DNA of 50,022 bases, filler included, from Stramenopiles sp. TOSAG23-3 (Eukaryota), in NCBI GenBank assembly GCA_900128585.1. It is 4 parts of 4 records of this genome, joined end to end, with 100 filler letters (N's around TTAATTAATTAA, not from the genome) between each part and the next. Parts side by side here need not be neighbours in the genome. Positions count along the whole stretch, not along the records: positions 1 to 22,888 come from LT642324.1; 3 more parts are not named here. The stretch is one strand, 5' to 3'. The position numbers were made by a program, and so were the translations under genes. Positions 2,313-29,395 of this stretch are shown here, in pieces (position 1 is the stretch's first letter; each line of letters opens with the position of its first letter). The notes under the pieces are model-generated. The model did not search any database and was not told the origin of the DNA. It saw only the letters and a program-made list of their open reading frames with translations.

Positions 2313-3789
2313 GCAATAACCAAAAAATAATAATACGACTGTAAATCACAGTACCCTACCTATTTTTAACTATCAGTAATAAGGACACAGTGTTGAGACA
2401 TCCATTTTACAACAAGTACACGTACTGTGCACGTAGCACCCACACAGCGGTACCCTTTTTTTATAGGCAGTCGTCTATCATCAAGGACAAATAATTTTAC
2501 TACGCTGAAGAAATATTTTTGTTGTGAAAAGAGTACGAGTAGTTGTCGTTAATTGTAGTTGTGAGTTGTGAACTCAGCACTCAGCAATAACAACAACAGC
2601 CCTTCTCCCATTTTTTTTTTTCTTTCTATAGTCTTTAGGTGACTTAATGGGAAAGAAATAGTTTTTTCATTAGCCGATTCCTGTTGACTCAACTCTACTC
2701 TTTACTCAAATACTCAAACAGTGCGAATTTAACCGCACTTCATGCACCTCGAGACTATACCTTACCTATAATACCTCTCCAGCCTAACTGCACAGCATTC
2801 CCTTCCTTTTTTTAATCCGTTTTCGATTATTTTTTATTATTATTATACTATAGAAATAGTATAGGATCAGGTTCTCGGAATCGTGTGGTCAAGTTAAAAT
2901 GAGGAGAGAAGCGACCTGGCTGCGTTAAAAGGGAGGGGGAGGACAAGTAAACAAAATACAAACAAACAAGTAATCGACTGATGCAAAAAAGATAACATTG
3001 TCTTTATTTACTTGTCCAAATTCTCGATACTTTCTTTGATAAATATAATTTGTTTCTTCTTCGCTTTCTTTATCCCCCATTCTGTACCATTGTAATAACT
3101 CTGCTAAGAGGGACCTACAATAACAAGGCAACTTCGGGCTATCAAACTGATTGCTATGTGAACATTACACAGCACCTTCATGAAAAAACGAGGTGGAAAA
3201 ATTCTCAAGAGGGGGGTCTTCTTCGTCATAAAAGTGGGGGGCTTATCGTATTAGGTTTAGTAGTACTTCTATCAAGGCTGTGCCTATATTTTATAGTGAC
3301 AGAAATATTCATTCTTCTTACAACAATGATCGATTCGCTCAATGGTAGCGGTGTGCGTTTTTTGTAAACCTACAGGTATACAGCACTATATAGACACCGG
3401 AAATTTCATTCATTTATTTACTTTTTTCTAATTTTTTCTAATCTATTTTGGAAAAATGCGTTCTTATTTTTAGTGTTGCTTTTTTAATTTAAATATCTGT
3501 AGTCACAAGCTTTTTCTTCCGAGCTATATCTCAATTGTCTGTGAAGGCCAGTGGTCTTGTTGAACAAATTTATTGTTTCAAACGGAAACAATATCTAGAA
3601 AATCGGAGTAGGAAAGTATTGCATTTCAGTAAGAAGATATATTTGCGGTCAGTTTATACACACGAGATTAAAGTATAAAGCTTGGTCGTGCTCATATCTT
3701 TTTTAAGAGGATTGAATAATACTGCACGTGAGACAGTCTCAAACGATTACTTGTTCGGATTGACTAAACAGCATACACTGTAGGACAAT

Positions 3790-6700
3790 ATGGTGAAACG
3801 TGTCGTTTTGGTAGCGCTATGTGCATTAGTATGCCTTGTTAGCTTTGGTGAAGCTGTGCGGGAGAAAGCGGCGGTGAAGTCATTTCTGCGAAACCGCTTG
3901 AGAACTAGAGCCACTCTTGAACCGAGGATCTGCTGTCAGGCAATGACTGCATCCTGTAGAGCCTGTAGTGCGGGGCAAACTGTGGATGAATATTGTGAAG
4001 AGCACAGAGAGACGCCTGGGTGCGAACAGGCTGGAGGAAAGTCCTCTGTTTATGCTAGGGATAATTTCAAAGATGGGCAAAACAGGGAGCTTTGGAAAAC
4101 TGTGCGAGCAGGAGGTGTCGATACCGAAGGTTGTGGAACTGGAAAGCCTGCGATGAGGTTTAAGGCCTTGGACACCGATAACTTTAGTCCCCCATCCATT
4201 ACAACCAAACCAATTGATTTGTTTGGTGGAGGTGAGTTAGAGTTCAGCCTAAAATTTTGCAGTGGAGACACAGAGGGTGGAGAATTTGCGGAATCGAATG
4301 GTGTAGTGGTCGAGTACAGTCTTGACGGAAAAAAGTGGGAGAAGTTCCAAGTATTCCTGAAGAGCGCAGTTGGCGAATCATTGTCAAAAGGGTTCCAGAA
4401 AACCACCCTGAAGATGAACAAAAAACACCACTTGCGCGCTGTGTCGAGTCACACCTCGTTTAAATTTACACAGGTGAAGGCAGAGCGAGGAAATTGGGCC
4501 ATTACAGATGTTGTTATTCGCCAGTACCCAGTTGCAACAACTGCCGAAGACGACTTCAAAACGAAAAAACCGGGTGTCTGGTCGTATCCACCGGTGAAAA
4601 AAGGAAAGGACGCGTACAAGTACATTCTGAGCCCCCGTGGTGTTGAATTTACCGGCAGCGCCAACGCACAGCACACAATTGGGTTGCAACGCGCATTCAC
4701 GCACGCACTCACCGTCTCCGCATCAGTTGTCAAGAACGACAAATGCAGTAGCCACTTCATGGCTCTCTCCCGTCGCACCAACTTCGCATTTTCGTGGGGT
4801 AAATCGCCCGGAGAAATAAAAGTAGGTTTCAACTGCAACCAACGTTTTGTTTACTCTCCGTGGGGAAACAAAGTCGTAAAATGCCCATCAAGCCCTGGGC
4901 AGCGGATAGAATATAAACTGAAATTAGTCGTAGACCAATTCAATATAATATTCTCCGACGAAGAGAACAAATGCGAAACGATCACAATCGACAACTCCCC
5001 CTTTGTGGGTGGACACGGAAAGCCCCACTTCCTCTTCATAGGGGCAGACCAGGACAAGCCAAACATGGTTTCATTATTTAAGAACATCAAAGTGGAACAA
5101 TCGGAGTGGGATGCCAAAGGCAGAGACCTGCCATCCGTTTTGATTTCTGATAACTTTGAAAAGAAAAACAGCGACAACTGGCAAATCACCGGCTTGAGCC
5201 AAAAACTATACCGTTTCGGTCCTGACGGCCTAACTGCTGCACAGTATGGCGACATCAAGGGATCCAACGCACCGATGCGAAGCACAGAGGCATACAATTT
5301 GCCAATTGCTGTTCAAACTACTGTTAAGTCATTTAGCAAAAGCGCAAACTACTACATTGCGGTCTCTCCCAATGCCGAATTTCAGTGGAACGGTTACCCG
5401 GACAAGGAATCGTTGAAGTTCGAATGGAGTTGCGAGAGCAAAACGTTCATTGGAATGGGCGAAGTTAAAGAGGCGAAGGCTTCCAAAGGTGAATGTGACG
5501 CCACCAAATGCACGGACGATGCTTTGCACAAAATTGAAGTGAAGATCTTCCCCGACTTGATTTCGTTTAAGGACAACTGCTGCAACATGATTTCAATGCC
5601 CAACAAATGGGGCATGGAAGCCCCAGTTCACGTGTTCGTAGGCGCCACTCGCAGGGACAAGGCTGCAGCCGCAGCCAAGTTCGTGAAATTGACTGTCAAG
5701 GGCCAAGAACGCCCTCCCGCAATTGAAGACGAATCGATATTGATGGACGATAACTTTGATTTTAACGACGAGAAAAACCCAAGCATGTGGACGCTTTCAG
5801 GCGACTGGAAAACTACCGGCGTTGTGAGTAAAAAGTGCGGCGCGTCTGAGGGATCCGCCATGGTATTCTCAAACACTGGCACTCGTGTGGCCACGTTGAA
5901 ACCTCTTACATTTCCATTTGGCGCGAAACTTAATTTCGACTTGAAATTTGGAGGGGGGGCAATATCGTGTGCAAGAATGGACCCAGAGAAGGGGGATAAA
6001 GTTGAGTTGCGAGCTAGTACAGACGGAGGGAAAACCTGGGAGCACATTGAAGAATGGAAAGCCAGCGTTTTCAAAGAGAACCTTGGAGAATGGAACAAGA
6101 TGGAGTTTAATTTCGTCAAGTCCTTGTTCCCGAATCTTGCGAGGTCCACTAATGTTCTCCTTCAATTTATCCAACCCGGTTATCACCGTCCCTGCTGCGG
6201 TCATTGGGCAATCGATACGGTTCGCGTTACGTCACTAGAAGTGAAGGGTGAACCGATATTCACTGAAACATTTGAATCCAAAAATACGGCATTGTTCACC
6301 TACCCAGATAAATCAGCGAACAAACATGCGTACACGTACGGGTTCGAAGATGGTATGTACTTCACCGGAGATGCAAACGGAAAGACGACTGTCCGCACAA
6401 CCAAGCCTTTGCAGGCTGGAACCGTTATCAAAGCAAGTTTTGACAAAAACGAGGCCTGCTCCAATCAATTCATTGCCATTTCGAAACGACCGGAGTTAAA
6501 ATTCTTCTGGGGAACGCCAAAAGATGCCATTTATTTCATGTGGAACTGTAAACAGAAGTACGTATATGCACCAGACAACAGAACTTCAGTGGAATGCCCA
6601 CAACTTCGAAAGTTCAATGTAATCATTAGAGCCACGGAAGAAGGGGTTGTATTCGAAGACGATAAATGCGAGTCCATCATTATGAACACTAACTCGGAAA

Positions 6701-9700
6701 TAGGTCAAGGCGCTTACTATCTTCATGTGGGAGCTGCGCAAGACCGCTCCGATAACAAGGCGCGCTTCACATCACTGCGCGTAGAACGTTTGCCAGACAA
6801 AGAAAAGAGTTTCATGGATACCGCCGAAGCTGATAACTTCGAGAAACAAGACAAAAAGAAGTGGTCCTATCCTAACCTCAACGATATGAAAAAAATTGAA
6901 ACGGAAGCCAAAGCAGCGAAGCAGAAAGCAACCAAGGCCCTAGAGGAAACCGGCCTTCGTATGGAGGACATCTCGGAACAGATTACCACTGGCCTCGATG
7001 CAGTCGCCAAAGCACAACGACAACGCCGTGAAGTACTAGTCAAGCTAGAGGCAACTGACAAAGAATTTTCGTCGAAACAGAAAGAGCTCGAGTCCATTGC
7101 GGGTGAAATTGCAAAGTTTAACGATAAAATGAAGAAAACTAAATTATCCCTTGCTGGAAAGAAAGCCAAGTACCAGATTGACAAGGAAGAGGTCGCCAGC
7201 AAACGAGCCGAGGGCGCTAGCCCGACCCAAATTAAAGGCGCCGAAGAGGCGATGAAAGCTTCGGAGGAAGACATGCTGTACGAACAAAATACCCTAAAAA
7301 AATGGGTTAAACTGGTAAAGGACTTAACATTGAAAGCCGACAAGATCAAAGGGTCCATTAATTCCCCGATCCGACCAATTTTGGTCGAATCGGCCAAAAT
7401 TGAGAAACTGGAAAAAGAAGTACTAGAAGGAATTGCCAAACTTGGTGGTTTGAAAGACAAACGAAAGACTTTGTCTGCCCAAGCAGAGAAAGCAGAGAAA
7501 GAAGTCGAACGAGTACAAAAAGCCATAGCTGATGGTATATCAAAAGAAGAGGACATCTTCCCGGCCATGGCAGCAGCGAGGAAGGTTTCAGCAGAAGTAA
7601 AAGAAGCAACAACATGGGTAGTAAAAGCTGTCGCTAATCTGACCGATATCGAAACTAGCCTTAATGCAACCCAACGCAAAGTTTCGGATATGGCTATGGA
7701 TACATTGACGAAATTAAAGGGCCTAGAGAAGCGTGCAGAGCACAGGATGAAAGATGCGAACCACTTTCTGAAGATGAAAACGCGGTACAAGGATGCGTCT
7801 GATTATGAGCTGAAGAACGCCAGGATCTTGTTGATCAAGGCCAAAAAGGGAACTACTGAAGAAGCCGCCGATGCAGCAGCGAAAGTAAGCAAACTTGAAA
7901 CGGAGCTCGGGAAACGCGTCCAGGCCCAACGGGCAGCCCAAGAGAGCGCATTGAAGGCAACGGAAACCTTCCAAGGCGCCCAAAACAAAAGCTTGGCGTT
8001 TGAGGCCTTCCATTCCATGCATATCAATGCCTCCAAATCCCAGGAAGAACTTTCCGCGTCTGTGAGACAGGAACGTCTGGTTACGCAGCAATCGAAAGAA
8101 GCCCAAACTGCACTTGAAACGGCGACTGCCAGTTTGCACCACGCGATGGCAATGAAAAGCCAGATGACCTCAGGTGGCCTGGGTTTCGCAGTCGCATACG
8201 GGTCATTAACCATTGACCCAGGAATGGCCACTACCATCCGTATGAAAGAGATGGTAGAACAGCCCGCGACGATTAAAGTCACTGTGAAAAGGAAAGACGA
8301 ATGCGACAACCAGGTCGTTGTGTTGAGCCCGAGCCCAGTCTTCACGTGGCCCTTGAAAAGAAGCAGCAAGGCAATTGCATTCCGATTCGCTTGCAATGAA
8401 AAGATATCGGAAGGTAAAGGTACGGTTAAGATGATATCCGGTGCCAACACGTACCTCCCACTAGCAAAGAACAAGTGCAACCCGAAAGATCAAGTTGACA
8501 TGATTATTAAGTCGAGCGGGGGATACGTTACCTTCAAAGACAACGCCGGGTGCGATCCTTTGACAACCTCGTTGCCATTTGGTACCGACAAGTTCTTCGT
8601 GTTCATTGGAGCAATAAAACCGAAAAAGACATCAACGATTGTCAACTTTGAGTTGAAAAAGCCTGAACTTCCTCCAAAACTTGCACGTAACGTTATTTTG
8701 TACGACGATTTTGATTTCCATGACAATATCTGGAAACCCCAGTGGAACTTGGACAAGACTGACGGCGAAGACAACACGAATGGCGTCGTGGACAAATTTT
8801 GCGGATCAGCGATGAAACCAGACGGCAACTCGTTGCGGTTTGCAAAAGAAGGCAGACGCATTGCCACAACGAAAGTTATGGATTTGACTGCTGGAGGTCT
8901 ACTGACATATTCGTTACGATTTGGGTTCGGCAATAATACCCACAATGCGATGTGCGCTCCAATGGCTAACCTTGATGACTGCATAGTGCTGGAGTACTGC
9001 ACTCGGGACTGCGAAAAGGCACAGATTGCACCTGCAAAGACACCCGTCGCGACCCTTCTCGATTTGGGGGCGGTCCCGGTGGCGAAAATTGCACAAAAGG
9101 GCGAAAGAACAGTGAAGACGTTTGCCTCTTACCCGAACCGCGCGAACCTGGTTCGTTTCCCGGAGGAAGACACCTCAGTTAATGCACGACTGCCAGTGGT
9201 GTGCTGTAAAGGCGACACTAAATTCGACTCGTCAAATTACGGAGGATGCCACATGTCGAAATCTTACGACGAAGCAACCAAGATCTGCCACAAGGCCGGA
9301 GCGGACCTTTGCACACTCGATGAGATCAGGCAATACAGGGCGAAAGGGACTGGGATTGGATGCCCCGAATTCGACAGAAAACGTATCTGGAGTCGTTCAG
9401 GCGAGAAGATTGTTCAGGCCAAGAACCCATCTACTGAAGACGAATTCGATGTTCCACACAACAAGCCGAAGGCCTACGCAGGTGGGTGGGAAGAGTTGAA
9501 ACGATACTCCGTCAAGGAATACCAACACACGCTATCTCGTGAATGGTCTAAGCAGCAAATGCTGCTTGATTGGGACAACAAGTTCATGATGACCTCCAAC
9601 ACCGCGCTTCGATTCCGCCAATGCAATGTGGATAACGATGCTGCTGAAAACCACTGGGCACTGGATGACATCAAAATTGTCAGCCGCAACAAACCTGTCC

Positions 9701-12700
9701 GCCCTGGAAATCAACCAAAGAATATTTTGGTGAATGATAAATTCGATGGTGACGACAGCGACCGATTCAACATGCAACAGTGGTGGTGGGACATGTGGCG
9801 CACTACCGGGCGAACCGATTCGTCTCTGGTAGGTGGCTACAAAGACGTTGGTCAATCCTTGACTTTCGGCGGAAATATTTCCTTGAGGACTGATAACAGT
9901 GCGTGGCAAATTGCACAAACGCCACCAATCGACACTGTAAGTGATGGGGGTGTCACCTTCGCTTTTTACATGAAATTCGGTAGGAAAGACATGAATGTGA
10001 GCGAGCATATGCGCGGTGTTGAATTTCAATACAGCACAACTGGACCCGATGGTGAGTTCAAGATTTTGAAGTCTTGGACTGACGTCAAGAAATTCAGTGA
10101 CTGGTCGCGTCAACTAATTCAGATCGACAACTGCTCTACGCCAGCTGCCATGACAAACGGAACCATTTTCCGTTTTATAATGGCCCGGAATGAGGAAGTT
10201 GCAGCAAACCCCCGAAGAGATATCTGGGCGATCGATAACTTCCAGGCGTTGACTGGAGACAGACGCATTGGCTGGGAAACGCACGGGTTGAAGGCGAGAG
10301 ACGACATGTTGTTTTGTTACCAGGAACCTCGTCAAATCACGCCGTACAAGTACGAGTACGTTGAAGATGAAGCGGGGGGACTCGAATTTTCAGGAAACGG
10401 GGTAGGAAAAGGTTCCGTTCGTGCCCACTCCTCGTTCCAAAGTCCATTATCCGTTGCAGCAACATTGGTCAAAGATGATGAATGTTCCAACCACTACGTT
10501 GTCCTTACCCCGGAAAAATATTACACGTTTAGCTGGGATCGCGAACCAAATACGTTCAAGTTCGTTTGGCGTTGTGATCGCAAAGTGCTGATCACCCCTT
10601 ACAGCACGACGTCAACATCCTGCGCTGACTTCAGAACATACAAAACCCGTATGAAGGTCAGTCATGAAGGTGCCGAGTTCAGAGATGATGGCGGATGCGG
10701 TACGCTCCGTGCAGATATCGGAATGCCCCTGGATATGGACTTTTACGTTTATTTTGGAGCAGTTCAAAAAGGAGATGAAAGCCAGATGACGGACAGGGTT
10801 TTGATGGACAATGATCAACCTGCCATTAACGAAACGTGGCTCAACACTTCCAGTATGGATTACAACGAAACCGAACTTGCTGATGAAATGCAAACGAACG
10901 AAACAAACTCTCCCCACCTAGACATCGCGTTCTTAGAGCAAAAGCAATCCGTTCCCACTCTTACCACTTGCGCGAAAGCGTTGGAAAGAACTTGTGGAAA
11001 CGTACTTGGGCAGATGTGCTTAGAGTGCTACGTGAAAAATTCCAAGCGCATTATTGTGGATGCCGATGGACTTGTGTGTAACCTTCGCCAAGCTAAATCG
11101 ATTTGTGCAACGAATGCCCACTTGGACAAAGATATTGTTGTAGAAAATGAGAGATTGCCTGAGCTTTCAAAAAAGTCTGGAAAACCGGCGAGGTTTGTCT
11201 CCATGCGTATTGGGGGTACTGGGTCATTTATTAACAAGGTAGATGCTTCACATGCGTGCCCTTCGCTTCGCGATTGCGGTCTATCGTCCTGGGGACGATG
11301 GGGAAAGTGCGACAAGGTATGCGGAGATGGTACCTCTCGTGCGTTCAGAAAAGTAATTCGCCCTCCTAAATTCGGTGGTAACAAATGCCCCGAGGATAGC
11401 AAGCTCGTGCGAACTCGCTCGTGCAATGTTCGCAGCTGCGATTGCCATGTGAGCGAGTGGACAGACTTTTCGTGCTGTACACAACCATGTGCTGATCCTA
11501 AATATGACCCGCCGATCGCTGGGAAACAATTCAGAACCCGAAGGGTAATCCTACCCCCCCTCAAGGACGGCATGGCATGCCCAACGTTGAACCACACGCG
11601 AGAGTGCAACCAAGAGCGATGTGCCGCTGTTGGTATTCCCCCGCTTGGCCAAACCAAGAAGTTCCTCAATAACACCAAATTTGAACCATTTGTTGCTGCA
11701 AATTACGAGGAATTCTGTTTGCAAGAACCGGGAAAACTTGGTTCCTACAAGTATGATTACGTTGCCAAAACGGACCCGTCTGGGGAAAAATTTGGTGTCT
11801 TTTTTAGCGGGGACTCCCGAGGCCAATCGTCTTTGCGAGGAAAGAAGTCTTTCCGTGTAGACGACCTTGTTCTCGAGACGAAGATCGACAAAAATAGTCG
11901 TTGCGCCAACCACTGGATAGCCTTGTCCGCAGACGAGTTCTTCACCTGGAACTACGAGCAAGAGCCAAAAGCGATCAAAGCTGGATGGTATTGTGACTAC
12001 AAGTTTTTGATTACTCCGACAGGAAACTTCACGACAAAATGCAACCGAATTCGCAAGTACAATGTCAGTTTGACGATTAAGGACAACATTATTACGTTCG
12101 CGGACGACCAATGTGCTCCATTGAAAGGACGTTTGGATCTTAAGCGCGACTACCACAATGTTTACACGTATTTGGGTGCAGATCACATTGCAGGGAAGGA
12201 GAGCATTACATTAGCAAAGCCCCTAACCGTTGACCAAGTCAATGCCCTCGAGGAGCAGAGAGGCACAATGGGTCCAAAAGGGGGTTCCGACGACGGGTTG
12301 CAGAACCAGGCCATGTCGAAGCAAGAGTTGGAGGATTTAGAAAACAATGTCACTGCCGGTCATCTGAATGTTACCACTAACTCGTCCACGGATCCCACCC
12401 CACCGGAGTTGGACACGGCGCATCCACGAAAGAACATGCCGTTGGACAGGTTGATGACACGAAACATCCGCACTCAAGAAATCGAAAGTCATAAAACTGC
12501 AACTGCCAAGCAGTTCCGGGAGACGCGCCCGAGTGAAATAGTCCAAGGTGCTTCCGCATGGTTGATTGCCAACCCTGTCAAGGGTGAATTGACTTCCGAC
12601 TACTTGAAATACCGAGGCAGTGAAATTCAATTGTACCGGTTCAATGGAATCGCGAATAAGTGGGAGAAAACCAGCAATCCTCTTCCCTTGAACTGCAGGG

Positions 12701-15700
12701 ATGAATTTGTTGCGGCCGGTGATGGCTGGGACGATGGGCTCTTCGTTAGGAACACGGAATACTTGCGCGTTTATGCTGTAGGAAAGATTGACATGATTAA
12801 ATCCCCTGCGGAATTAATGATGAACGGTACGGAGTACCACGGAAGAGAGCCCGGGCCAAGAGGCTCAGAGGGGGGCAGCGGGGGCATCACAGCCCATCCT
12901 CTGCTCGCTGGAGGGGACGCCGCTGCTCTTGCGTTTGTAGAGATGGTGCCAGGACGCACCATGAAGACTCTTCCGGGCAATCCACTTTTCGACAAACGTG
13001 TTGCCAAGGACTCGCCAATCACTGAGCGCCATGCCGTACGATGCTGCTGGAACAAAGACTCAAAGTTGATGATGGAGGCCTATGGATGCCATAAAGATGT
13101 GACGTACACGAAGGCCAAGTCAACCTGCGAAGAGCACGGGTTTCGGTTGTGCAGCATCGAAGAAGTGAAGGCCGGCAAAGTTGCCGAGACCGGGTGCGGC
13201 TACGACGTGGAGACCATCTGGACATCGTCCGGCGGCGAAGATGGGGATGATGATGCCACACCTCAACCTGAAAAGGCGATTAAACTTGCCAAGGATCCAG
13301 TAGGCGATTGCGTTACTGTACCAGCCGGTTTGAACAATCTCTTCAGGGGTGTAGATTTGTCAGGCAAGAAGATGTGCTGCGACCATGGGCACGCGTTGGA
13401 TTCAACCACCAGGAATAGCTGTAAAAGTTTGGAAGGAGAAAAATGCTACTTGTACGGTGGCGATCTTATGACTGCCACTCCCCACCCATGCTCTTCGGTC
13501 CGCCGGGAGACTGGATGGAAACTTGTGTTTAAGCAAACTGTCGAAAAGGATTTCCAAGGAAGGGTTGTTCGAAGAACGGTCAATGCAAACGGGGAAGAAA
13601 CTGTTAATAAGGGTGATTCCTCCAGCTGCGCGCCAGCCATTGGCTGGTTCAAAGACCAAATGCTCAACACTGGGCTGAAAGTAGAACACTACATGGTCGA
13701 GACTGTGTACCAAGGTGCAATTAAATCACAAGCGGTTGGTAAAGTTAAGGACATCACTGGAGACGAAACCTTCTTCGGGGGTATCACCAAAGGTGATCGG
13801 GGTGTATGCCTGAAGAAGATGAAACTTCTCGTTCCATTCGGGGACAAGACGTTCAACGCCCAAATCAGTTATGGGGAGCAGAAAGATGCATCGGACTTTT
13901 GCAACTACGGCTCAGGGAAAACGTCCGTCAATAGTTACATGGTTGCCGACAACGGTGCCAGTGATCAATTCGGGGCAGACTTCAGCTTTTTCGCGCACAG
14001 GAACAGCCCAGGGCAGTTCAGCACATGCCAAATGAACAAAATTTTTAACACGGACAATGACGATAAAGTGAAGCGAAGCATTGCGTTCTACGTGAAAGGC
14101 AAAGTTGAGAAGACGACCAACTCATTGGGAATGTGCCCCGGTGGTGCCCTCGAGTTGAAGAATCAGGACGGAGACGCCAGGTTTTGCAACGCCAAGACGC
14201 CTTGCCCGATTGGATACTCGTGTGACACGAAGACGAACAAACACATGGCGGTTTGCTGTGGCACGGCCGTCGAAATGAACACGACCAAGGATTTAGATGG
14301 TCGCTTGCCAGTGCCAGGGGAGCCAGAGAAAAACATGGCTGTATTCACGTTTCTGCGCGTTAGTGGCCCAGGAACCCTTGTCAATACAGATGATGGTTCT
14401 AAGACGTGCCCGTCTCTGATAGACTGCCAAGTTACTGGCTGGGGCGAATGGGAGCCATGTACCCAGCTGTGCGGTGGGGGAAACAAAACCCGCCGACGCA
14501 AGGTATTGAAACCAAGTCAGTATGGCGGACGTGAATGCCCAGCATTGGCACAAGTTGGAAGTTGCAATGCGCAGTCGTGTGATTGCGGTGTAACCAAATT
14601 TACAGAGTGGAGTGAATGCAGCAAGGACTGTGGTGGTGGTCTTACGGCAAGATCGAGAAAGGTGTTCCGGGAACCACAACAAGACGGAGAAGCATGCCCG
14701 CACTTGAATGAGACGGAGGTGTGCAACAACATGACATGCCCATTTGTTGGCATGCCACCAATTGGAGTGTCCAAGTTTCAATTAAAAAATACCGAGCCAG
14801 AAGGGTTCAAAGGACGGGAGGACAAATTGTGGTGTTACGAAAAGGCCGAACGGTTGGCGCCGTACAAAATGGGTTACGTTACAGGTGACAACATCGCCTT
14901 CTCCGGAAGTGGTGTAGGTCGAACTACGCTTCGTTCCCGCTTCTCGTTCCAGGCGCCATTGCAGATAGACCTCGCCCTTGACTACGAACAGGTGTGCGAC
15001 AACCATTACGTAATTTTGAGCACGGATGAATACTACATGTTCAAGACAGGCAACGAGCCAGACACGATTAAATTTATGTTTGACTGTGGCCACAAGCGTG
15101 TTCAAACCGAAAACATGAACGAAACTGCCGTGTGCATGCCCCATATTGATCGTAAGCAAAAAATTACCATCAACATCGATGAATTCGGAAATGCCACATT
15201 CGCCGACTTGCACTGCCCATCCGTTTCTGTACAAGACATGGCGGGGTCCTTGGGCAAGAACAAAGATTTTTTTGTATACGTTGGAGCAAACCGGGACGAT
15301 CCACCTCAGCAGGCAAGCCAGCAGCTTCGGACTACATTCCACTCTGTTGTGGTTAGTGGAGAAGGATCTGTGATCAACAACTACAACACTACCACCGAGT
15401 GCCCCGGCCAAGGCGACTGCAAAGTAGAACCATGGACGGAATTCAGCAACTGCACTGCCCCGTGTAACAATGGAGAGAACGGCGGCGGAAACCACACTCG
15501 CACACGGAAGGTTATTAAATTCCCAACGAACGGTGGAAAAGCGTGCCCAGCGCTCACTGAGACACGCCGCTGCAACATTCAAAAATGCGGCGAGGACTGC
15601 GTTGTATCCGATTTTAGCCCATGGGGCAACTGCTCGGAGCCTTGCAATGGCGGTGAGCAATGGCGTGTACGCGCGATTGTCAACCAGCGAGTGGAGGGTT

Positions 15701-17364
15701 CGCATTTCGGAAAGAACGAATGCCCGGCATTAAAGGAAAAACGCACATGCAACACAATGCACTGCGGAAAGGACTGCGTTGTCGACCGATGGTCTGGGTG
15801 GAGTAAGTGCTCTGCCCCTTGCGGCGGTGGCGTCAGGGCGCGTAGGCGAGTGATTCTGTCCGCGCCCGTCAAGGGCGTGAATGCGGGCAAAGCCTGCCCA
15901 GCCCTCGAAGAGACGAAACCATGCAACACGCACTCGTGCATGTTGGAAGGGGTACCACAGCCAATTACGTACGACAACGAGTGCTCTCGGTTGTCTGGGT
16001 CTTGCGGTGGGTGCACTGCCAACCCGAAGTGTGGGTACTGCCCTGGCACAGGCCAATGCATGCTCGGTTCTGTGCGAGGGCCAACCCCGCGGTGGGACAG
16101 GGACGAAGACACGCCAACGTTCATGCACGACGAACAGAAGGCATTTATGTACGCCACCAACTGCTCGTCGTGGGAATTCTCATACTGCTCGGCGAACAGT
16201 TGCCAAGACTACAAAGGGTGCGGCGATTGCTTGAAAGACCAATTCTGTGGGTGGTGTCCATCAACCAACAAGTGCTTGGAAGGTGACTCCGCTGGCAGCA
16301 CAGAGGTCGGAGAGTACTGCCCACGCGGCTGGTTGCACTCACCACTGCATTCTGGCTACGGCGAGGAACAGCGATACGATAGCCTTCTGTCGCCCTCCCA
16401 AAAGAAGGTGCAGCAAGGACACTTGACCGAATATTGCGCAGCAAACAATTTGGAAACGAGAGCGTCTATTGCAGAAAAAATGCTGGACGAGACGAAACGC
16501 CAAGAGCAACTTCGCCTGGCCCGCGAAACCTGTTTGCCGTGCACTGGTACGTGGCCAAATTGCCACTGTGGGCAAGACCAGGTGATGAGCCAACCGAAGC
16601 CAGTTGACAAGCTTCAGGTAACTCGCGAACAGGACCAAGCAGATGGTGTGGACCAAACGTTGCCAAGAAACGATACTGTCGAGACCTTGATCGACCATGG
16701 GAAGCCATCCTTCGGGGTAGGCGCCGTGTGCAAAACGAGCAGCGAGTGTTCCTCCAAGATGTGTGGTGGCGGTCATTGCTGCAGCGTCGACGCAAATGGG
16801 TGCACAGGCAATGGCATATGCAACGAACTAGGAAACTGCGTTTGCAAGGAAGGCTGGTTCGGCCCTCAGTGCAACCGCGATTCGAACATCACGGTGGGCA
16901 AGGAATTCGACGGCAACTCGACAGCAGAGCTTGAAAAGGAGGGGTTATCAAAGAACATGGTCGACGAAATGAAAAACGCGCTGGCGGCAGGCAACGCAAG
17001 CATGCTTTTGAAAGTAATGCACGAAAAGAACGAAATTGATCGTCAAAACCAGGCGTCTAGCCAAGAGTACCTTGGTGCGGTAAAGAATTTCTCGTCCAAA
17101 GTAGATAGCCTGAAAGTTACACCCAACGCTGAGAAGCAAGTTTCCGTAGAAGCAGCCAATGCCGATCTTAACAGAGAGGACAAACTGCTCAAACAGAAGC
17201 GAATTGAGCAAGAAGTAACTTCCAAACGAATCGAACGCACATCAGACCCTGTCGCCAGAAGCCAATTACAGAACCAGTTGGACATTCAAAAGAATGTTGC
17301 TGAAAACATGGAAGCTGGCCTCGCTGCAAAGCTATCCGTCACAGCGGCGACGGGCGGCAAATAA
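3790..17364 (+). CDS. Giant secreted mosaic extracellular protein (reelin-like subrepeats, repeated beta-domain, coiled coil, TSP1-spondin, PSI, EGF), 4524 aa
   Basis: Uninterrupted ORF with signal peptide (MVKRVVLVALCALVCLVSFGEA). Reelin-type DxF...W...CG...F...R...T...F.L.FG...YS.DGG..W...WAID units at about 4057-4524, 5743-6231, 8701-9680 and 9733-10250. Seven DCxVSxWxxWxxC...CP.L...C TSP1 repeats (11272-11622, 14422-14739, 15415-15939). Two PSI-like CxxC...CG(Y/W)C units (about 15980-16335). EGF CTGNGICNELGNCVCKEGWFGPQC (16801-16872). No C-terminal TM segment visible. Confidence 0.9.
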   Translation: MVKRVVLVALCALVCLVSFGEAVREKAAVKSFLRNRLRTRATLEPRICCQAMTASCRACSAGQTVDEYCEEHRETPGCEQAGGKSSVYARDNFKDGQNRELWKTVRAGGVDTEGCGTGKPAMRFKALDTDNFSPPSITTKPIDLFGGGELEFSLKFCSGDTEGGEFAESNGVVVEYSLDGKKWEKFQVFLKSAVGESLSKGFQKTTLKMNKKHHLRAVSSHTSFKFTQVKAERGNWAITDVVIRQYPVATTAEDDFKTKKPGVWSYPPVKKGKDAYKYILSPRGVEFTGSANAQHTIGLQRAFTHALTVSASVVKNDKCSSHFMALSRRTNFAFSWGKSPGEIKVGFNCNQRFVYSPWGNKVVKCPSSPGQRIEYKLKLVVDQFNIIFSDEENKCETITIDNSPFVGGHGKPHFLFIGADQDKPNMVSLFKNIKVEQSEWDAKGRDLPSVLISDNFEKKNSDNWQITGLSQKLYRFGPDGLTAAQYGDIKGSNAPMRSTEAYNLPIAVQTTVKSFSKSANYYIAVSPNAEFQWNGYPDKESLKFEWSCESKTFIGMGEVKEAKASKGECDATKCTDDALHKIEVKIFPDLISFKDNCCNMISMPNKWGMEAPVHVFVGATRRDKAAAAAKFVKLTVKGQERPPAIEDESILMDDNFDFNDEKNPSMWTLSGDWKTTGVVSKKCGASEGSAMVFSNTGTRVATLKPLTFPFGAKLNFDLKFGGGAISCARMDPEKGDKVELRASTDGGKTWEHIEEWKASVFKENLGEWNKMEFNFVKSLFPNLARSTNVLLQFIQPGYHRPCCGHWAIDTVRVTSLEVKGEPIFTETFESKNTALFTYPDKSANKHAYTYGFEDGMYFTGDANGKTTVRTTKPLQAGTVIKASFDKNEACSNQFIAISKRPELKFFWGTPKDAIYFMWNCKQKYVYAPDNRTSVECPQLRKFNVIIRATEEGVVFEDDKCESIIMNTNSEIGQGAYYLHVGAAQDRSDNKARFTSLRVERLPDKEKSFMDTAEADNFEKQDKKKWSYPNLNDMKKIETEAKAAKQKATKALEETGLRMEDISEQITTGLDAVAKAQRQRREVLVKLEATDKEFSSKQKELESIAGEIAKFNDKMKKTKLSLAGKKAKYQIDKEEVASKRAEGASPTQIKGAEEAMKASEEDMLYEQNTLKKWVKLVKDLTLKADKIKGSINSPIRPILVESAKIEKLEKEVLEGIAKLGGLKDKRKTLSAQAEKAEKEVERVQKAIADGISKEEDIFPAMAAARKVSAEVKEATTWVVKAVANLTDIETSLNATQRKVSDMAMDTLTKLKGLEKRAEHRMKDANHFLKMKTRYKDASDYELKNARILLIKAKKGTTEEAADAAAKVSKLETELGKRVQAQRAAQESALKATETFQGAQNKSLAFEAFHSMHINASKSQEELSASVRQERLVTQQSKEAQTALETATASLHHAMAMKSQMTSGGLGFAVAYGSLTIDPGMATTIRMKEMVEQPATIKVTVKRKDECDNQVVVLSPSPVFTWPLKRSSKAIAFRFACNEKISEGKGTVKMISGANTYLPLAKNKCNPKDQVDMIIKSSGGYVTFKDNAGCDPLTTSLPFGTDKFFVFIGAIKPKKTSTIVNFELKKPELPPKLARNVILYDDFDFHDNIWKPQWNLDKTDGEDNTNGVVDKFCGSAMKPDGNSLRFAKEGRRIATTKVMDLTAGGLLTYSLRFGFGNNTHNAMCAPMANLDDCIVLEYCTRDCEKAQIAPAKTPVATLLDLGAVPVAKIAQKGERTVKTFASYPNRANLVRFPEEDTSVNARLPVVCCKGDTKFDSSNYGGCHMSKSYDEATKICHKAGADLCTLDEIRQYRAKGTGIGCPEFDRKRIWSRSGEKIVQAKNPSTEDEFDVPHNKPKAYAGGWEELKRYSVKEYQHTLSREWSKQQMLLDWDNKFMMTSNTALRFRQCNVDNDAAENHWALDDIKIVSRNKPVRPGNQPKNILVNDKFDGDDSDRFNMQQWWWDMWRTTGRTDSSLVGGYKDVGQSLTFGGNISLRTDNSAWQIAQTPPIDTVSDGGVTFAFYMKFGRKDMNVSEHMRGVEFQYSTTGPDGEFKILKSWTDVKKFSDWSRQLIQIDNCSTPAAMTNGTIFRFIMARNEEVAANPRRDIWAIDNFQALTGDRRIGWETHGLKARDDMLFCYQEPRQITPYKYEYVEDEAGGLEFSGNGVGKGSVRAHSSFQSPLSVAATLVKDDECSNHYVVLTPEKYYTFSWDREPNTFKFVWRCDRKVLITPYSTTSTSCADFRTYKTRMKVSHEGAEFRDDGGCGTLRADIGMPLDMDFYVYFGAVQKGDESQMTDRVLMDNDQPAINETWLNTSSMDYNETELADEMQTNETNSPHLDIAFLEQKQSVPTLTTCAKALERTCGNVLGQMCLECYVKNSKRIIVDADGLVCNLRQAKSICATNAHLDKDIVVENERLPELSKKSGKPARFVSMRIGGTGSFINKVDASHACPSLRDCGLSSWGRWGKCDKVCGDGTSRAFRKVIRPPKFGGNKCPEDSKLVRTRSCNVRSCDCHVSEWTDFSCCTQPCADPKYDPPIAGKQFRTRRVILPPLKDGMACPTLNHTRECNQERCAAVGIPPLGQTKKFLNNTKFEPFVAANYEEFCLQEPGKLGSYKYDYVAKTDPSGEKFGVFFSGDSRGQSSLRGKKSFRVDDLVLETKIDKNSRCANHWIALSADEFFTWNYEQEPKAIKAGWYCDYKFLITPTGNFTTKCNRIRKYNVSLTIKDNIITFADDQCAPLKGRLDLKRDYHNVYTYLGADHIAGKESITLAKPLTVDQVNALEEQRGTMGPKGGSDDGLQNQAMSKQELEDLENNVTAGHLNVTTNSSTDPTPPELDTAHPRKNMPLDRLMTRNIRTQEIESHKTATAKQFRETRPSEIVQGASAWLIANPVKGELTSDYLKYRGSEIQLYRFNGIANKWEKTSNPLPLNCRDEFVAAGDGWDDGLFVRNTEYLRVYAVGKIDMIKSPAELMMNGTEYHGREPGPRGSEGGSGGITAHPLLAGGDAAALAFVEMVPGRTMKTLPGNPLFDKRVAKDSPITERHAVRCCWNKDSKLMMEAYGCHKDVTYTKAKSTCEEHGFRLCSIEEVKAGKVAETGCGYDVETIWTSSGGEDGDDDATPQPEKAIKLAKDPVGDCVTVPAGLNNLFRGVDLSGKKMCCDHGHALDSTTRNSCKSLEGEKCYLYGGDLMTATPHPCSSVRRETGWKLVFKQTVEKDFQGRVVRRTVNANGEETVNKGDSSSCAPAIGWFKDQMLNTGLKVEHYMVETVYQGAIKSQAVGKVKDITGDETFFGGITKGDRGVCLKKMKLLVPFGDKTFNAQISYGEQKDASDFCNYGSGKTSVNSYMVADNGASDQFGADFSFFAHRNSPGQFSTCQMNKIFNTDNDDKVKRSIAFYVKGKVEKTTNSLGMCPGGALELKNQDGDARFCNAKTPCPIGYSCDTKTNKHMAVCCGTAVEMNTTKDLDGRLPVPGEPEKNMAVFTFLRVSGPGTLVNTDDGSKTCPSLIDCQVTGWGEWEPCTQLCGGGNKTRRRKVLKPSQYGGRECPALAQVGSCNAQSCDCGVTKFTEWSECSKDCGGGLTARSRKVFREPQQDGEACPHLNETEVCNNMTCPFVGMPPIGVSKFQLKNTEPEGFKGREDKLWCYEKAERLAPYKMGYVTGDNIAFSGSGVGRTTLRSRFSFQAPLQIDLALDYEQVCDNHYVILSTDEYYMFKTGNEPDTIKFMFDCGHKRVQTENMNETAVCMPHIDRKQKITINIDEFGNATFADLHCPSVSVQDMAGSLGKNKDFFVYVGANRDDPPQQASQQLRTTFHSVVVSGEGSVINNYNTTTECPGQGDCKVEPWTEFSNCTAPCNNGENGGGNHTRTRKVIKFPTNGGKACPALTETRRCNIQKCGEDCVVSDFSPWGNCSEPCNGGEQWRVRAIVNQRVEGSHFGKNECPALKEKRTCNTMHCGKDCVVDRWSGWSKCSAPCGGGVRARRRVILSAPVKGVNAGKACPALEETKPCNTHSCMLEGVPQPITYDNECSRLSGSCGGCTANPKCGYCPGTGQCMLGSVRGPTPRWDRDEDTPTFMHDEQKAFMYATNCSSWEFSYCSANSCQDYKGCGDCLKDQFCGWCPSTNKCLEGDSAGSTEVGEYCPRGWLHSPLHSGYGEEQRYDSLLSPSQKKVQQGHLTEYCAANNLETRASIAEKMLDETKRQEQLRLARETCLPCTGTWPNCHCGQDQVMSQPKPVDKLQVTREQDQADGVDQTLPRNDTVETLIDHGKPSFGVGAVCKTSSECSSKMCGGGHCCSVDANGCTGNGICNELGNCVCKEGWFGPQCNRDSNITVGKEFDGNSTAELEKEGLSKNMVDEMKNALAAGNASMLLKVMHEKNEIDRQNQASSQEYLGAVKNFSSKVDSLKVTPNAEKQVSVEAANADLNREDKLLKQKRIEQEVTSKRIERTSDPVARSQLQNQLDIQKNVAENMEAGLAAKLSVTAATGGK

Positions 17365-18719
17365 TTAGGAACCTTAATAGGAAATTATCATCGGGCTAAG
17401 TAGAACATGAAACCTTTGGCTTTACTTGCGGGGCGGGAAAATCTCGTGTCTCGTCCAGCGCTACAGAAATGTGTCAAGCCGTGGTTGTTTTTTTACTACT
17501 TACGATGAAATTTCACCAAACATATAATATCATATAAAAAAATATCTCAACTACTGTTTTATTATTTAAAATTTAAAAATGTGCTACATAGGCAAAATTA
17601 GGGAAGTATTAATACGCATTCAAGTATTTTAAGTACACCATTGTGGTTGTACATACAACCAGCAGGAATGAAGAAGAGGAGAGAGAAGGGAAAAGGAAAG
17701 CATTTTTTGAAATTGTTTTAGGTAGAATATGTATTTTATTTCTATTTGACCTTCAGCGTCTTCTTCTTCCACGCCATATTATTTTTATATTTTACTATTA
17801 ATTATTAATGATGATGTCCTGTAATAACTATAATAATAATAAAAATAATACTATTATTTTATTAGTTCTTTCTTTCTTCTATTTTATTATTTTGTTTCTA
17901 TAATAAATAATAAATACAAAAATATAACTGTGTTGTTGTTGTGGGGTGTTGTTGTATATTATAATATAGATAACAAAAAAAAAACAACAAAAAAAAAAAT
18001 CATTATTATTATTTAAAATAATAATCAGAACAAACAGACGAATAATGGACAAACGGACGAATGATCTATCTACGGGAGTAATCTGTTAATCATGATTAAT
18101 GTATTAATCGAAACTACTTAAAGAATCCAATAGACAGATCAAAACAAGAATATCATAAAATAAAACGTATCAATTCAAACAGGCCCTTGCTCCTAGTAAA
18201 TGGAAAGAGGACCAAAAAACAAAATCAAGTTAAAGGCGTAAGTACACCCCCGTTCCATCTTTCCGAACCCATTGCAAAGAATTTCGATGAAGACAAACCC
18301 TGTGGTAACCGACCATAATGAGAAGATAACACGCGTCATAAGGACCTCTCGAGAAATTCAACTGCTTCGCCACAACCTGGTGCTCTCTAAAATGCCCTGT
18401 CGCGCCTTTCGCCTTCTGATCCACTAACACTCGATTAACTTCATTCCTTATTAGTGTATAACAATCTCGGTGACGACGAGTAGCGCAACTAATTATTATA
18501 TAGTATGCACGTACATATTGCACGTACTTTCTTACATTGCAAATAACTGTATATCTACATACGAGCAGACCCCAGCAAACTAACCGTCACACGTCCGAAC
18601 TTGACTTGCTCTATTCGTCATACCCCCACGCGCTGCGGCAGCTTCAATTCGTCGCTGCCTCTCCAAATACCTTCGTCGCCCTTCTGCCAAAATGTTTTTC
18701 TTTCTGTTTTGGAAAGCTT

Positions 18720-18839
18720 NNNNNNNNNNNNNNNNNNNNNNNNNNNNNNNNNNNNNNNNNNNNNNNNNNNNNNNNNNNNNNNNNNNNNNNNNNNNNNNNN
18801 NNNNNNNNNNNNNNNNNNNNNNNNNNNNNNNNNNNNNNN
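18720..18839. other. Assembly gap (120 N, no linker)
   Basis: Run of N without the TTAATTAATTAA insert, so probably an intra-scaffold gap. Confidence 0.9.
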
Positions 18840-19250
18840 ACGAGAAACGAATTCCTGTTCATCAACAACATGTTCCCTCCAATCTGGAGGAGGGGAAAAC
18901 TGTGGCCACCAATTGTTGAAACCGGATAGTTTTAACGCCGGAACTGGAACTCAACGAGTAGAATTGACTCAGTAAGCAATTGATAGTTTCGTTAATCTTC
19001 ACCGAAGTTATTTGGAAGTAAAGTTAAAAGTGGTGCTAACTTATGATATCATACATAACATAATGATGGCAGAGGAAATGTTGAATAATACTGGAGATAT
19101 AATAATTGGCTTAACGTAAACTCCCCCGAGGCTACAATCATACTTCAGATCTAAAGCAGACCGTCAGACCGTCAGCGAACAGGCATCCCTTAGTATTCCA
19201 CCCACTATCACATCAAATTATCCCGGGACCGTGCAGTGCGTTCCATTCCT

Positions 19251-19757
19251 TTACTGATCTTGCAAAATGGTGCAGCCTACGATAAGTTCGGTTGCCTCTT
19301 TGGCTTTGGCGTTTTCTGGGGCAGATTGAACTTTTACAACAATTTCTTTGTCGGCTTCGAAAGCGTCTTTGATCTTTTGGCCCAATTCTGGGTCAAGAAG
19401 GAACTCGTTGGTTGGAAGCTGAAGGTCTTCCTTTTGTTCTCCGTTGTCGTCCATCAAAGTAACGAAATCTTCGTCGTCAATATCAACAACAGTCCAGTCA
19501 GTGGTTTTTACAACTGGCTGGTACATGGTGTGGGAGGTTGGGGAAATATCCATAACCTTTTTGCCAGTAATAATGTCAATACCAGTCATGTTAGCTTTGG
19601 CGTGGCCGTGCTTTCCTGTTTTGGACGTAGTAACTTCGATAACCTTGCATGGCTTGTCCTTCAAGATGGCAAACATTCCTTTCTTAACTTCACCAGCACG
19701 GATTGGTGTTACCAAGGCGGCGCCCGAACCACCGTCGTCGAATTCTTCGTCAGACAT
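19251..19757 (-). CDS. EIF5A: Eukaryotic translation factor 5A (hypusinated)
   Basis: Invariant hypusine motif TSKTGKHGHAK, PCKVIE, and a typical length of 168 aa. Confidence 0.97.
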   Translation of the reverse strand: MSDEEFDDGGSGAALVTPIRAGEVKKGMFAILKDKPCKVIEVTTSKTGKHGHAKANMTGIDIITGKKVMDISPTSHTMYQPVVKTTDWTVVDIDDEDFVTLMDDNGEQKEDLQLPTNEFLLDPELGQKIKDAFEADKEIVVKVQSAPENAKAKEATELIVGCTILQDQ

Positions 19758-20535
19758 ATTTGTTTGTTATTTCTTTCGTTTGTTTAATTTCTTTTCTTAA
19801 AAACTCAAATGAATATTTTCTACCAACTTTTACCAATTTGTTACATACATTTCATTTTTGGAAAGGTTGACTAGTATAAGGCAAATCCGTCTTGGTCGCT
19901 TTCGTTCTGAAGCAGTGATTTGTTATGGTGGTATGAAGTGGTACAAAAATACTTGTGTGGTGGTGGTGGTGTGTGATGCGTTTGGGATGCTGTGTTAATA
20001 TAAATTCCATCATCATATTCTCCCTCCTCCTCTCCTGTCCTCTCTTTCTTCCTTCTCTCTCTCTTATTATCTTTCTCTTTCATGTCAACGTAATATATAA
20101 ATAGCATAGGAGGAACATAATAAAAGATTCATGGTTGTTCATTTGTTCCTAATAAATTTTATATTTTTTTATGGATAAACCAACAAAACGCAAATCAATG
20201 CTATTTCCTCTTTTTCCTTTAAAGTTCTTCAGATGTGTTAAGTGACGCTCCTCCCCCCACCATTCACTTCATTTTTATAATACCAAAGGTAATTCTATGT
20301 ATATCGATATTATTGGAATAATCGAATAATATTAAAAATAATATATTATTATAGAAGAAAGAAGAAGAAAAACTATTTAATTAAAACCAATAGATTGTTG
20401 AGTTTATAATAAACAATACAATTTATTATAACACAAATACTAACAAAAATTCATCAAAAAAAAAAGTGAATCCGAACTGTAACGAACTAAGCCATGCTAT
20501 TTAGTATATTACCATAATAAAATATTTATAGTTCC

Positions 20536-20923: not shown

Positions 20924-21191
20924 GAAGAAGAGAAGAAGAAGAAGAAGAAGAAGAAGAAGAAGAAGAAGAAGAAAGAAGATGAAGAAGAAGAAGAAAGAAG
21001 AAGAAGAAAGAAGAAGAAAGAAGAAGAAAGAAGATGAAGAAGAAGAAGAAAGAAGAAGAAGAAAGAAGAAGAAGAAAGAAGAAGAAAGAAGAAGAAAGAA
21101 GAAGAAAGAAGAAGAAAGAAGAAGAAGAAGAAAGAAGAAAGAAGAAGAAGAAAGAAGAAGAAGAAAGAAGAAGAAAGAAGAAGAAAGAAAG
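20924..21191. repeat. (GAA)n / (GAAAGAAGAA)n polypurine microsatellite
   Basis: About 270 bp composed almost entirely of G and A. Confidence 0.95.
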
Positions 21192-29150: not shown

Positions 29151-29395
29151 CTTCCGTGCCTAAACGCTTGGGCAAATCTCAGCACTCGGGCATGCATGTA
29201 CAAGAAGCGACAGTGGTTGGTTGGCTCTGCCTCGGTTTTATATTTAATTGAAAACTTTGAAGTACTCCAATGATCTAGATAATACACTAAACTTGATGAT
29301 TATTTGTATAAGATACATTTATTATTGTATGTATTACTGTGTTGAGATATGTATAGCTTTTATATATAAATAAATACTAATTCAAAGAGAAGTGT

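Follow-up and report, generated by a model that had tools for sequence, protein, structure and literature searches.

Secreted mosaic adhesins that carry thrombospondin type 1 (TSP1) repeats are known in protists, and both parasites and oomycete spores reportedly have secreted adhesins with arrays of such repeats. Reelin, a vertebrate extracellular glycoprotein, is a giant secreted protein. In PMC4882317, a review of its structure, the subrepeats are described as 11-stranded jelly rolls that are akin to carbohydrate-binding modules; an Asp-box and a Ca2+ site are present in every one. Here we describe a gene in which modules of both kinds occur in a single giant protein. It lies on a stretch of DNA of 50,022 nucleotides (nt) from Stramenopiles sp. 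TOSAG23-3 (assembly GCA_900128585.1), composed of four parts joined with filler and referred to below as the window; the gene belongs to the first part (positions 1 to 22,888, from LT642324.1).

The gene encodes a protein of 4,524 amino acids (aa) with four reelin-type units, seven TSP1 repeats, an internal coiled coil and seven copies of a domain, here called X, that belongs to no Pfam family. The product is most likely a secreted mosaic glycoprotein of ~0.5 MDa without a membrane anchor, and it probably acts as a long, multivalent glycan-binding scaffold for adhesion or matrix building.

The gene and its transcript

The open reading frame (ORF) at 3790..17364 on the plus strand starts with ATG, uses standard stop codons and includes its stop in these coordinates. 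It forms one uninterrupted frame of 4,524 codons, as an earlier note on this DNA had stated in describing a single 13.6-kb ORF. The chance that 4,524 codons stay open, ~(61/64)^4524, is effectively zero, and no rival frame of near-similar length is open in any other frame around 3790-17364.

Contigs of four RNA runs from four studies (runs X3, X4, X8 and X20) were aligned to positions 2300-19800 of the window. Run X3 yields a single contig of 13,866 nt (record 9) that matches 3618-17481 collinearly and without gaps, the mismatches numbering 9. Contigs from the three other studies, two of which used polyA selection, are likewise collinear: those of run X4 lie on 3623-11987 and 11958-17517, an 11,449-nt contig of run X8 (a polyA library) on 6047-17471, and a contig of run X20 on 13109-17551. 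No contig joint falls within the ORF in these four runs, and the aligned contigs show a single indel, an extra base that is probably erroneous, as the contig concerned has a depth of 2.3. The collinear contigs without internal joint therefore indicate one intron-free mRNA of ~13.9 kb and no assembly chimera; this is the check with reads across the ORF that the earlier note had proposed. The 5' untranslated region of ~170 nt (~3618-3789) contains no ATG, which makes the ORF's own start codon the first AUG in the mRNA, and the 3' untranslated region measures ~110-190 nt. RNA contigs are used here as evidence of presence and continuity, not of expression level.

When a 9.9-kb portion of the ORF was searched against public sequencing runs, 20 of the 24 runs listed contained half or more of the sampled words; 14 of the 20 are recorded as RNA, and nine studies are represented. 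The window itself may derive from two DNA runs among the matches. In a scan of metagenomes, two contigs were 100% identical to the window over the tested part and no other contig was returned. Given the 13.9-kb RNA contig, the collinear contigs of other studies, the two identical metagenome contigs and a collinear relative with 59.5% identity (see below), there is practically no probability left that the ORF arose as an assembly chimera or that it is a pseudo-ORF, and nothing was found in favour of either. The gene is real, transcribed and intron-free, and comes from a marine single-celled eukaryote.

Overall architecture of the protein

The protein was scanned with Pfam both as a whole (E <= 0.01) and in 23 overlapping segments (E <= 1), and was further analysed by self-comparison and by iterated hidden Markov models (HMM). 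From the N-terminus to aa ~2330, a signal-like start and a cysteine-rich stretch are followed by reelin-type unit 1, X domains 1 and 2, reelin-type unit 2, X domain 3, a helical region, X domain 4, reelin-type unit 3 with an inserted cysteine-rich module (the C module), reelin-type unit 4 and X domain 5. From aa ~2330 to aa 4524 come a linker, two TSP1 repeats, X domain 6, some 650 unassigned residues that include a further C module, a Lustrin-type domain, two TSP1 repeats, X domain 7, three TSP1 repeats, two PSI units, a conserved block, an EGF-like domain and a polar tail. The coordinates of all these elements are collected in Table 1.

The stretch aa 5-23 is the only 19-residue window of the whole protein with a mean Kyte-Doolittle value of at least 1.3, and it reaches 2.57. 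This N-terminus fits a signal peptide, as judged by hydropathy. As no hydrophobic 19-mer is found beyond it, there is no transmembrane (TM) anchor. The same pattern, a hydrophobic start with no later hydrophobic segment, is seen in the relatives P0003, P0004 and P0006. Furthermore, the whole protein has 39 N-x-S/T sequons and 3.6% cysteine, which is consistent with an extracellular glycoprotein.

A heptad test was applied in which hydrophobic residues at positions a and d were counted in the best register of 28-residue windows and compared with 200 shuffles. It gives z 6.8 for aa 1020-1440, against 1.0 for the C-terminal residues 4365-4524 and 0.8 for a globular control. The real coiled coil therefore lies in the interior of the protein. 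A complex prediction with two copies of aa 1030-1410 returned a score of 0.00, which is no answer and carries no weight either way.

The modules named in the earlier note were all recovered: its signal peptide corresponds to the lone strongly hydrophobic N-terminal window, hydropathy of the whole protein agrees with its absence of a TM anchor, and its four reelin-type subrepeats, seven F-spondin-type TSP1 repeats, two PSI units and one EGF are each matched by Pfam, as detailed in the following sections. Its coiled-coil tail is not supported, the C-terminal part having no heptad signal above that of the shuffles. The list had also passed over the X domain, which is the most abundant module, the internal coiled coil of ~370 aa, the C module and the Lustrin match.

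Reelin-type units

The Pfam model Reelin_subrepeat-B (PF21471, cut-off 27 bits) matches four stretches in the whole-protein scan, with an overall E of 6.9e-40. The highest-scoring is unit 2, for which all four distinct PDB sequences found at E <= 1 are Reelin, the best at 2.6e-11. It aligns with the A as well as with the B subrepeats of the reelin chain and contains a canonical Asp-box, STDGGKTW. The reelin-type string quoted in the earlier note is present here, at aa ~660-815. Unit 3 is recognised as two halves: aa 1665-1736 correspond to positions 2-64 of PF21471 (26.8 bits), and aa 1910-1963 to positions 77-126 (22.6 bits).

By reading of the sequence, the insert that separates the two halves (aa 1737-1909, nt 8998-9516) appears to be placed at the Asp-box hairpin of unit 3 (TRDC…[insert]…GGWEE).

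There is no A-EGF-B arrangement and no reeler domain in the protein. It is therefore not a reelin; homologous modules have been put to use in a different protein.

The X domain

X is a domain of ~160 residues that was found by self-comparison and iterated HMM; its seven copies make up ~25% of the protein. Pairwise identity between copies is 18-35%, and four cysteines as well as the motifs F.D and GA are invariant in all seven. In Pfam, not one of the seven copies has a matching family. One X profile (A1) has no match among PDB sequences at E <= 10 and another (A4) retrieves only rows at the level of chance, while a search of the ESM Atlas gave no usable match. The idea that X is a diverged reelin subrepeat was rejected, as hhalign gives a probability of 0.1% for X against the reelin-type units.

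A structural model provides more information. An AlphaFold2 (AF2) model of X domain 5, built from the seven copies, has a mean predicted local distance difference test (pLDDT) score of 74.2 and a predicted template modelling score (pTM) of 0.76. Foldseek against the PDB returns eight matches at E <= 0.001, all of them glycoside hydrolase family 16 (GH16) glucanases or LamG domains (E ~4e-4). With VIA-align, run against 48,161 chains, the top Z values are 10.7, 10.6 and 10.6, the first of them to the legume-lectin domain 7exo_A (root-mean-square deviation 3.2, 144 aligned residues). The next matches are GH32 C-terminal sandwiches, the carbohydrate-binding module (CBM) CBM66, peanut lectin, ERGIC-53/VIP36, galectins and SPRY domains. 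Almost all of the top 50 rows are concanavalin A (ConA)-like. A fragment of the thrombospondin C-terminal domain is one of the many ConA-like matches to X, at Z 9.6 and 8.8. With this method Z values of 7-8 are common even for models without a true match; since the values here reach 10-10.7 and the top rows come nearly all from one superfamily, we accept for X, as modelled, the beta-sandwich fold of ConA-like lectins and glucanases, the fold only and not a function. An enzyme reading in the manner of GH16 was rejected, as no conserved acidic catalytic motif is present in the alignment. The catalytic motif of the GH16 type is ExDxxE, and it is not seen among the columns conserved in all seven X copies.

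The distribution of X extends far beyond this protein. A profile search of 1.84 billion representative proteins gave 196 matches with an E threshold of 0.001, a number that falls to 102 for a threshold of 1e-10 and to 14 for 1e-30. Partner domains were determined with Pfam for the 150 of the 196 that were listed (20 + 45 + 85). The majority of these 150 have no domain named by Pfam; the partners that are named (TSP1, reelin subrepeat, PSI, Kazal, MAM, SRCR, PAN, cadherin, fn3 and NIDO-AMOP-VWD) are extracellular. Bacterial-type relatives among the 150 combine X with DUF2341 (seven proteins), with PKD or with a T9SS sorting tail. X is thus an unannotated extracellular module that is spread across kingdoms. 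Membership in a known family is not apparent: no match to a Pfam family of the ConA-like type was obtained with the 45 relatives that were scanned as single domains, and only one of the 85 further relatives matches Laminin_G_3. The domain alone merits a family definition, which Pfam does not have.

A short, conserved, strand-like motif, F..[LMV]R[IV][SG]G.G..[IV]N, occurs just upstream of each TSP1 array, at aa ~2471-2498, ~3510-3545 and ~3845-3870 (nt ~11200-11283, ~14317-14424 and ~15322-15399), and recurs in the relatives. It lies 140 aa beyond X domain 5 and 700 aa beyond X domain 6. Both copies may carry large inserts, situated in a loop before their last strand.

TSP1 repeats and other cysteine-rich modules

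The best-matching Pfam model for the TSP1 repeats is TSP1_spondin (E 1.6e-88, seven stretches), and the WxxW signature is present in three of the repeats. The two PSI units recognised by the plexin-repeat model also match each other in the self-comparison (aa 4063-4099 against 4136-4171). For the EGF-like domain, EGF_2 exceeds its cut-off of 22.1 bits in the segment scan, with 26.8 bits, against 20.8 bits on the whole protein.

The two copies of the C module match one another with 32% identity (E 2.4e-10). The module has no match in Pfam, and its best PDB sequence match is a kinase at E 0.46. In the long unassigned region before the Lustrin-type domain, the block aa 3168-3445 shows 58.6% identity to P0003, and P0026 contains a relative of it. 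An AF2 model of aa 3150-3450, for which three sequences were used, has a pLDDT of 42.6 and is unusable.

Relatives and conservation

Relatives were sought in 5.8 billion clustered proteins, with one search for proteins of near-equal length and one for shorter proteins. The first returned four matches, namely the window protein itself (P0001), P0003 (4,676 aa), P0004 (3,084 aa) and a weak match that concerns TSP1 only. The second returned 12, all of them fragments or unnamed. None of the 4 + 12 matches bears a functional or organism name, and a viral sequence collection contained no match to the window protein. The earlier note had recognised no described family and had recommended a search for homologues of the full architecture. 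Such a search thus confirms its view, as this set of proteins holds no named or characterised protein of the same architecture, and it reveals a collinear relative, P0003, in environmental data.

P0003 is 59.5% identical to the window protein overall, with 58-80% in the globular modules and ~34% in the coiled coil and the tail. The one insertion in it that exceeds 42 residues is an extra C module, so that it has three copies against two in the window protein. The number of X domains is seven in both, and six in P0004, which reaches the end of its contig. P0006 (3,577 aa) is more distant, with 27-44% identity; it has eight X domains, seven TSP1 repeats and three reelin-type stretches, as well as a Kazal domain. 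P0031 and P0048 share with the window protein a cassette of TSP1, PSI and the conserved block that follows. All relatives are unnamed predictions from metagenome or transcriptome data. Judged by these alignments, the architecture is that of a family which has been conserved among several eukaryotes, uncultured or unnamed. Word searches of open-access text turned up no account of protists with reelin-type repeats.

Possible function

The gene and its transcript, the modules, the modelled ConA-like fold of X, the lack of a TM segment and the conserved architecture are observed here; secretion, sugar binding, adhesion and oligomerisation are inferred, as are the place and time at which the protein would act. 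The signal peptide would route it into the secretory pathway. Eleven beta-sandwiches of carbohydrate-binding type, that is, four reelin-type, CBM-like jelly rolls and seven X domains, would provide many weak sugar sites, and the seven TSP1 repeats could in addition bind matrix partners or glycans that are anionic or sulfated. As disulfide-braced spacers there would be the PSI, EGF and Lustrin-type units, and the internal coiled coil of ~370 residues could be a rod, a site of oligomerisation, or both. Having no anchor, the protein would be kept in place on a surface or target by its own lectin-like contacts. If it is indeed such a lectin, it offers an expressible handle on the binding of polysaccharides, prey or particles by an abundant small marine eukaryote.

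Several points weigh against a glycan-binding scaffold. A lectin-like fold, itself known from a model, is no proof of sugar binding. The model of X was built on seven sequences, and a Z of ~10 to a very common type of sandwich speaks for a fold, not for a function. Reelin itself has protein receptors. Moreover, the Asp-box of reelin seems to be structural and not functional, as stated in parts of PMC4882317. The population variants in the RNA contigs (23 in number, 10 synonymous and 13 non-synonymous, most of the latter affecting linkers or the coiled coil) are too few to show constraint. Finally, ~1,000 unassigned residues (aa 24-100, 2330-2470, 2800-3448 and 4180-4330) could hold the real activity.

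Among the alternatives, the protein could serve a phagotrophic flagellate as a lectin for the capture of prey or particles, a context named in the earlier note. It would be released, displayed on feeding structures or stored in an extrusome, and would bind bacterial or algal surface polysaccharides ahead of ingestion. The many lectin-type modules together with the TSP1 and PSI repeats fit this idea, as does the presence of the mRNA in metatranscriptomes that several studies obtained from seawater. In PMC8163842, a comparative study of marine stramenopiles, a table gives orthogroups with TSP1 and PSI as 'cell interactions' and 'cell adhesion' markers of phagotrophic marine stramenopile (MAST) lineages, which is suggestive and serves as background only. 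However, no extrusome-specific feature was found in the protein, and the nearest named relative of another gene of the window is from a green alga (47% identity); we regard prey capture as unlikely. The same lectin-type modules and TSP1 and PSI repeats would suit a scaffold of the cell's own covering, be it scales, a wall, mucilage or a mating or aggregation matrix, in which the cell's own polysaccharides would be cross-linked. The lack of an anchor, the large size and the rod-like coiled coil agree with such a role, and RNA contigs are present in all four aligned runs, from four studies. No compositional bias of the wall-protein type is seen, however, and this role too is improbable in our estimation.

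It is highly improbable that the protein is an adhesin for host attachment or invasion by a parasitic protist, secreted on contact as are the apicomplexan micronemal TSP1 proteins: TSP1 arrays do reportedly occur in adhesins of parasites and oomycete spores, but neither a TM segment nor a vWA domain nor a cytoplasmic tail was found here. A signalling ligand in the manner of reelin or F-spondin, with a specific protein receptor, would be in line with the homology of four units to reelin subrepeats; it is barely credible, since there is no reeler domain and no A-EGF-B unit, and the units stand singly between X domains.

The glycan-binding scaffold remains the reading that we consider probable. 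A more far-reaching proposal is put forward tentatively, as a possibility: the protein may be the type member of a family, so far undescribed, of giant and secreted 'lectin-rod' proteins of marine picoeukaryotes, in which reelin-type units (known elsewhere from an animal brain protein), X domains and TSP1 repeats on a coiled-coil rod would form the main extracellular glue for the capture of prey or particles or for a coat. If so, a widely expressed and unannotated player in the adhesion of small marine eukaryotes to polysaccharide-rich matter would have been found.

Other genes and features of the window

The other genes of the window are plainly eukaryotic, which places the giant gene in eukaryotic DNA; they include those for MORN-repeat, RCC1-repeat and thioredoxin-UBA proteins, RecQ, TRAPPC9, FKBP, a kinase with two cyclic-nucleotide-binding domains, PP2C and eIF5A. 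As most of them are uninterrupted ORFs, the genome looks intron-poor. No tRNA, rRNA or Rfam match is present in the window. The RecQ gene product retrieves only broad eukaryote clusters in an Atlas search.

Downstream of the giant gene, a stretch of low GC content (35-39%) extends from 17.4 to 24 kb, with eIF5A as its only long ORF; RNA contigs of runs X3 and X8 cover 19069-19800, the region of this gene. Long GAA/TTC-type trinucleotide arrays, some of which lie in this stretch, are found at 20924-21185, 22989-23273 and 29395-29528, with ~82 and ~95 GAA copies. At 18719-18840, record 10 of RNA run X3 has 178 other letters in place of 120 bases, which looks like a structural variant or a related copy.

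The named relatives of the DUF7897 protein are Mesostigma (47%), Monosiga (39%), Coccomyxa (37%) and Naegleria (36%), while the closer ones (65-78%) are all environmental. One environmental relative (P0157) is fused to CobW-type domains.

Table 1. Positions of the giant gene, of the modules of its product and of other genes in the window
Feature	Residues (aa)	Positions in window	Strand	Basis and remarks
Transcribed unit		3618..17551	+	~13.9 kb, intron-free; RNA contigs
Signal-peptide-like N-terminus	1-23	3790..3858	+	Hydropathy; hydrophobic N-terminus also in P0003, P0004, P0006
N-terminal Cys-rich stretch	24-100	3859..4089	+	No Pfam match; 41.6% identity to P0003
Reelin-type subrepeat 1	108-243	4111..4518	+	PF21471, 37.8 bits
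X domain 1	259-421	4564..5052	+	Self-comparison, iterated HMM
X domain 2	459-621	5164..5652	+	Iterated HMM
Reelin-type subrepeat 2	677-813	5818..6228	+	PF21471, 57.5 bits; PDB matches Reelin only; Asp-box at aa 743
X domain 3	831-984	6280..6741	+	Iterated HMM
Internal coiled-coil/helical rod	1030-1410	6877..8019	+	0 Cys, 5 Pro; heptad z 6.8; 34% identity to P0003, gap-free
X domain 4	1457-1610	8158..8619	+	Iterated HMM
Reelin-type subrepeat 3	1665-1963	8782..9678	+	PF21471, split by ~170-aa insert (aa 1737-1909)
C module copy 1 (Cys-rich)	1773-1871	9106..9402	+	Inside insert of reelin-type unit 3; no Pfam match
Reelin-type subrepeat 4	2037-2151	9898..10242	+	PF21471, 27.6 bits
X domain 5	2170-2326	10297..10767	+	Iterated HMM; copy used for structure model
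TSP1 repeats 1-2	2499-2611	11284..11622	+	Pfam
X domain 6	2637-2799	11698..12186	+	Iterated HMM
Region without Pfam match	2800-3448	12187..14133	+	Holds C module copy 2 and conserved ~280-aa block
C module copy 2	3056-3148	12955..13233	+	Within aa 2800-3448
Lustrin-type Cys-rich domain	3449-3491	14134..14262	+	PF14625 (Lustrin_cystein), 28.3 bits, cut-off 27
TSP1 repeats 3-4	3550-3650	14437..14739	+	Pfam
X domain 7	3676-3835	14815..15294	+	Iterated HMM
TSP1 repeats 5-7	3877-4050	15418..15939	+	Pfam, self-comparison
Two PSI (plexin-repeat) units	~4060-4175	15967..16314	+	PF01437, 31.2 bits (cut-off 23.1), 2 stretches
Conserved block after PSI	4180-4330	16327..16779	+	Common to P0031 (E 2.1e-24) and P0048 (E 1.2e-15)
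EGF-like domain	4331-4361	16780..16872	+	EGF_2 26.8 bits, EGF_Teneurin 26.4 bits (segment scan)
Polar Cys-free C-terminal tail	4380-4524	16927..17361	+	No TM segment, no clear heptad signal; 34.5% identity to P0003
eIF5A, single-exon		19251-19757	-	IF5A-like_N E 7.2e-28; eIF-5a E 3.9e-19
DUF7897 protein		36714-38531	-	Pfam; patchy named relatives
PKG-like kinase, 675 aa		39151-41178	-	Two cyclic-nucleotide-binding domains N-terminal to kinase domain
PP2C gene		42410-44101	+	Comes after PKG-like kinase gene

Comparison with known systems

With reelin the window protein has in common its giant size, probable secretion and four homologous units, one of them with a canonical Asp-box. Reelin has eight A-EGF-B repeats, whereas the units of the window protein are single and alternate with the unrelated X domain, the only EGF being at aa 4331-4361. 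A Reeler match was obtained neither with the whole protein (E <= 0.01) nor with the segments (E <= 1), and the TSP1 repeats, PSI units and coiled coil of the window protein are absent from reelin. F-spondin shares only the TSP1_spondin repeats, as no reeler or spondin_N domain was found by Pfam. The thrombospondins differ in having type-3 repeats and a C-terminal domain, neither of which Pfam detects here. Attractin has only PSI in common with the window protein, in which no CUB, kelch, C-type lectin or laminin-EGF domain and no TM anchor were found. Since the other signature domains of reelin, F-spondin and attractin are thus absent from the Pfam scans and only the repeats are shared, it is reasonable to suppose, as the earlier note did, that the modules were assembled independently of these proteins. 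The window protein adds a data point on the independent assembly of 'animal' matrix modules in unicellular lineages.

The ConA-like lectins and glucanases share with X the predicted two-sheet sandwich (VIA-align Z 9-10.7; Foldseek E ~4e-4), but X has no sequence-level membership in any such family, whether Laminin_G, Lectin_leg-like or GH16.

The protein would work in the manner of the secreted TSP1 adhesins of protists and of animal matrix glycoproteins. The likeness to the former, represented by the apicomplexan TRAP/MIC2 adhesins and those of oomycete spores, would lie in TSP1 repeats within an extracellular and likely adhesive protein. The vWA domain, TM segment and cytoplasmic tail of TRAP/MIC2 have no counterpart in the window protein, the bulk of which consists of predicted lectin-type sandwiches that do not belong to the protist TSP1 adhesins. 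It further differs from these adhesins in that reelin-type subrepeats occur outside a reelin context, that a quarter of the protein consists of a family that is not in Pfam and is also present in bacterial and animal-type extracellular proteins, and that its 13.9-kb mRNA is found near-unchanged in seawater metatranscriptomes of several independent studies.

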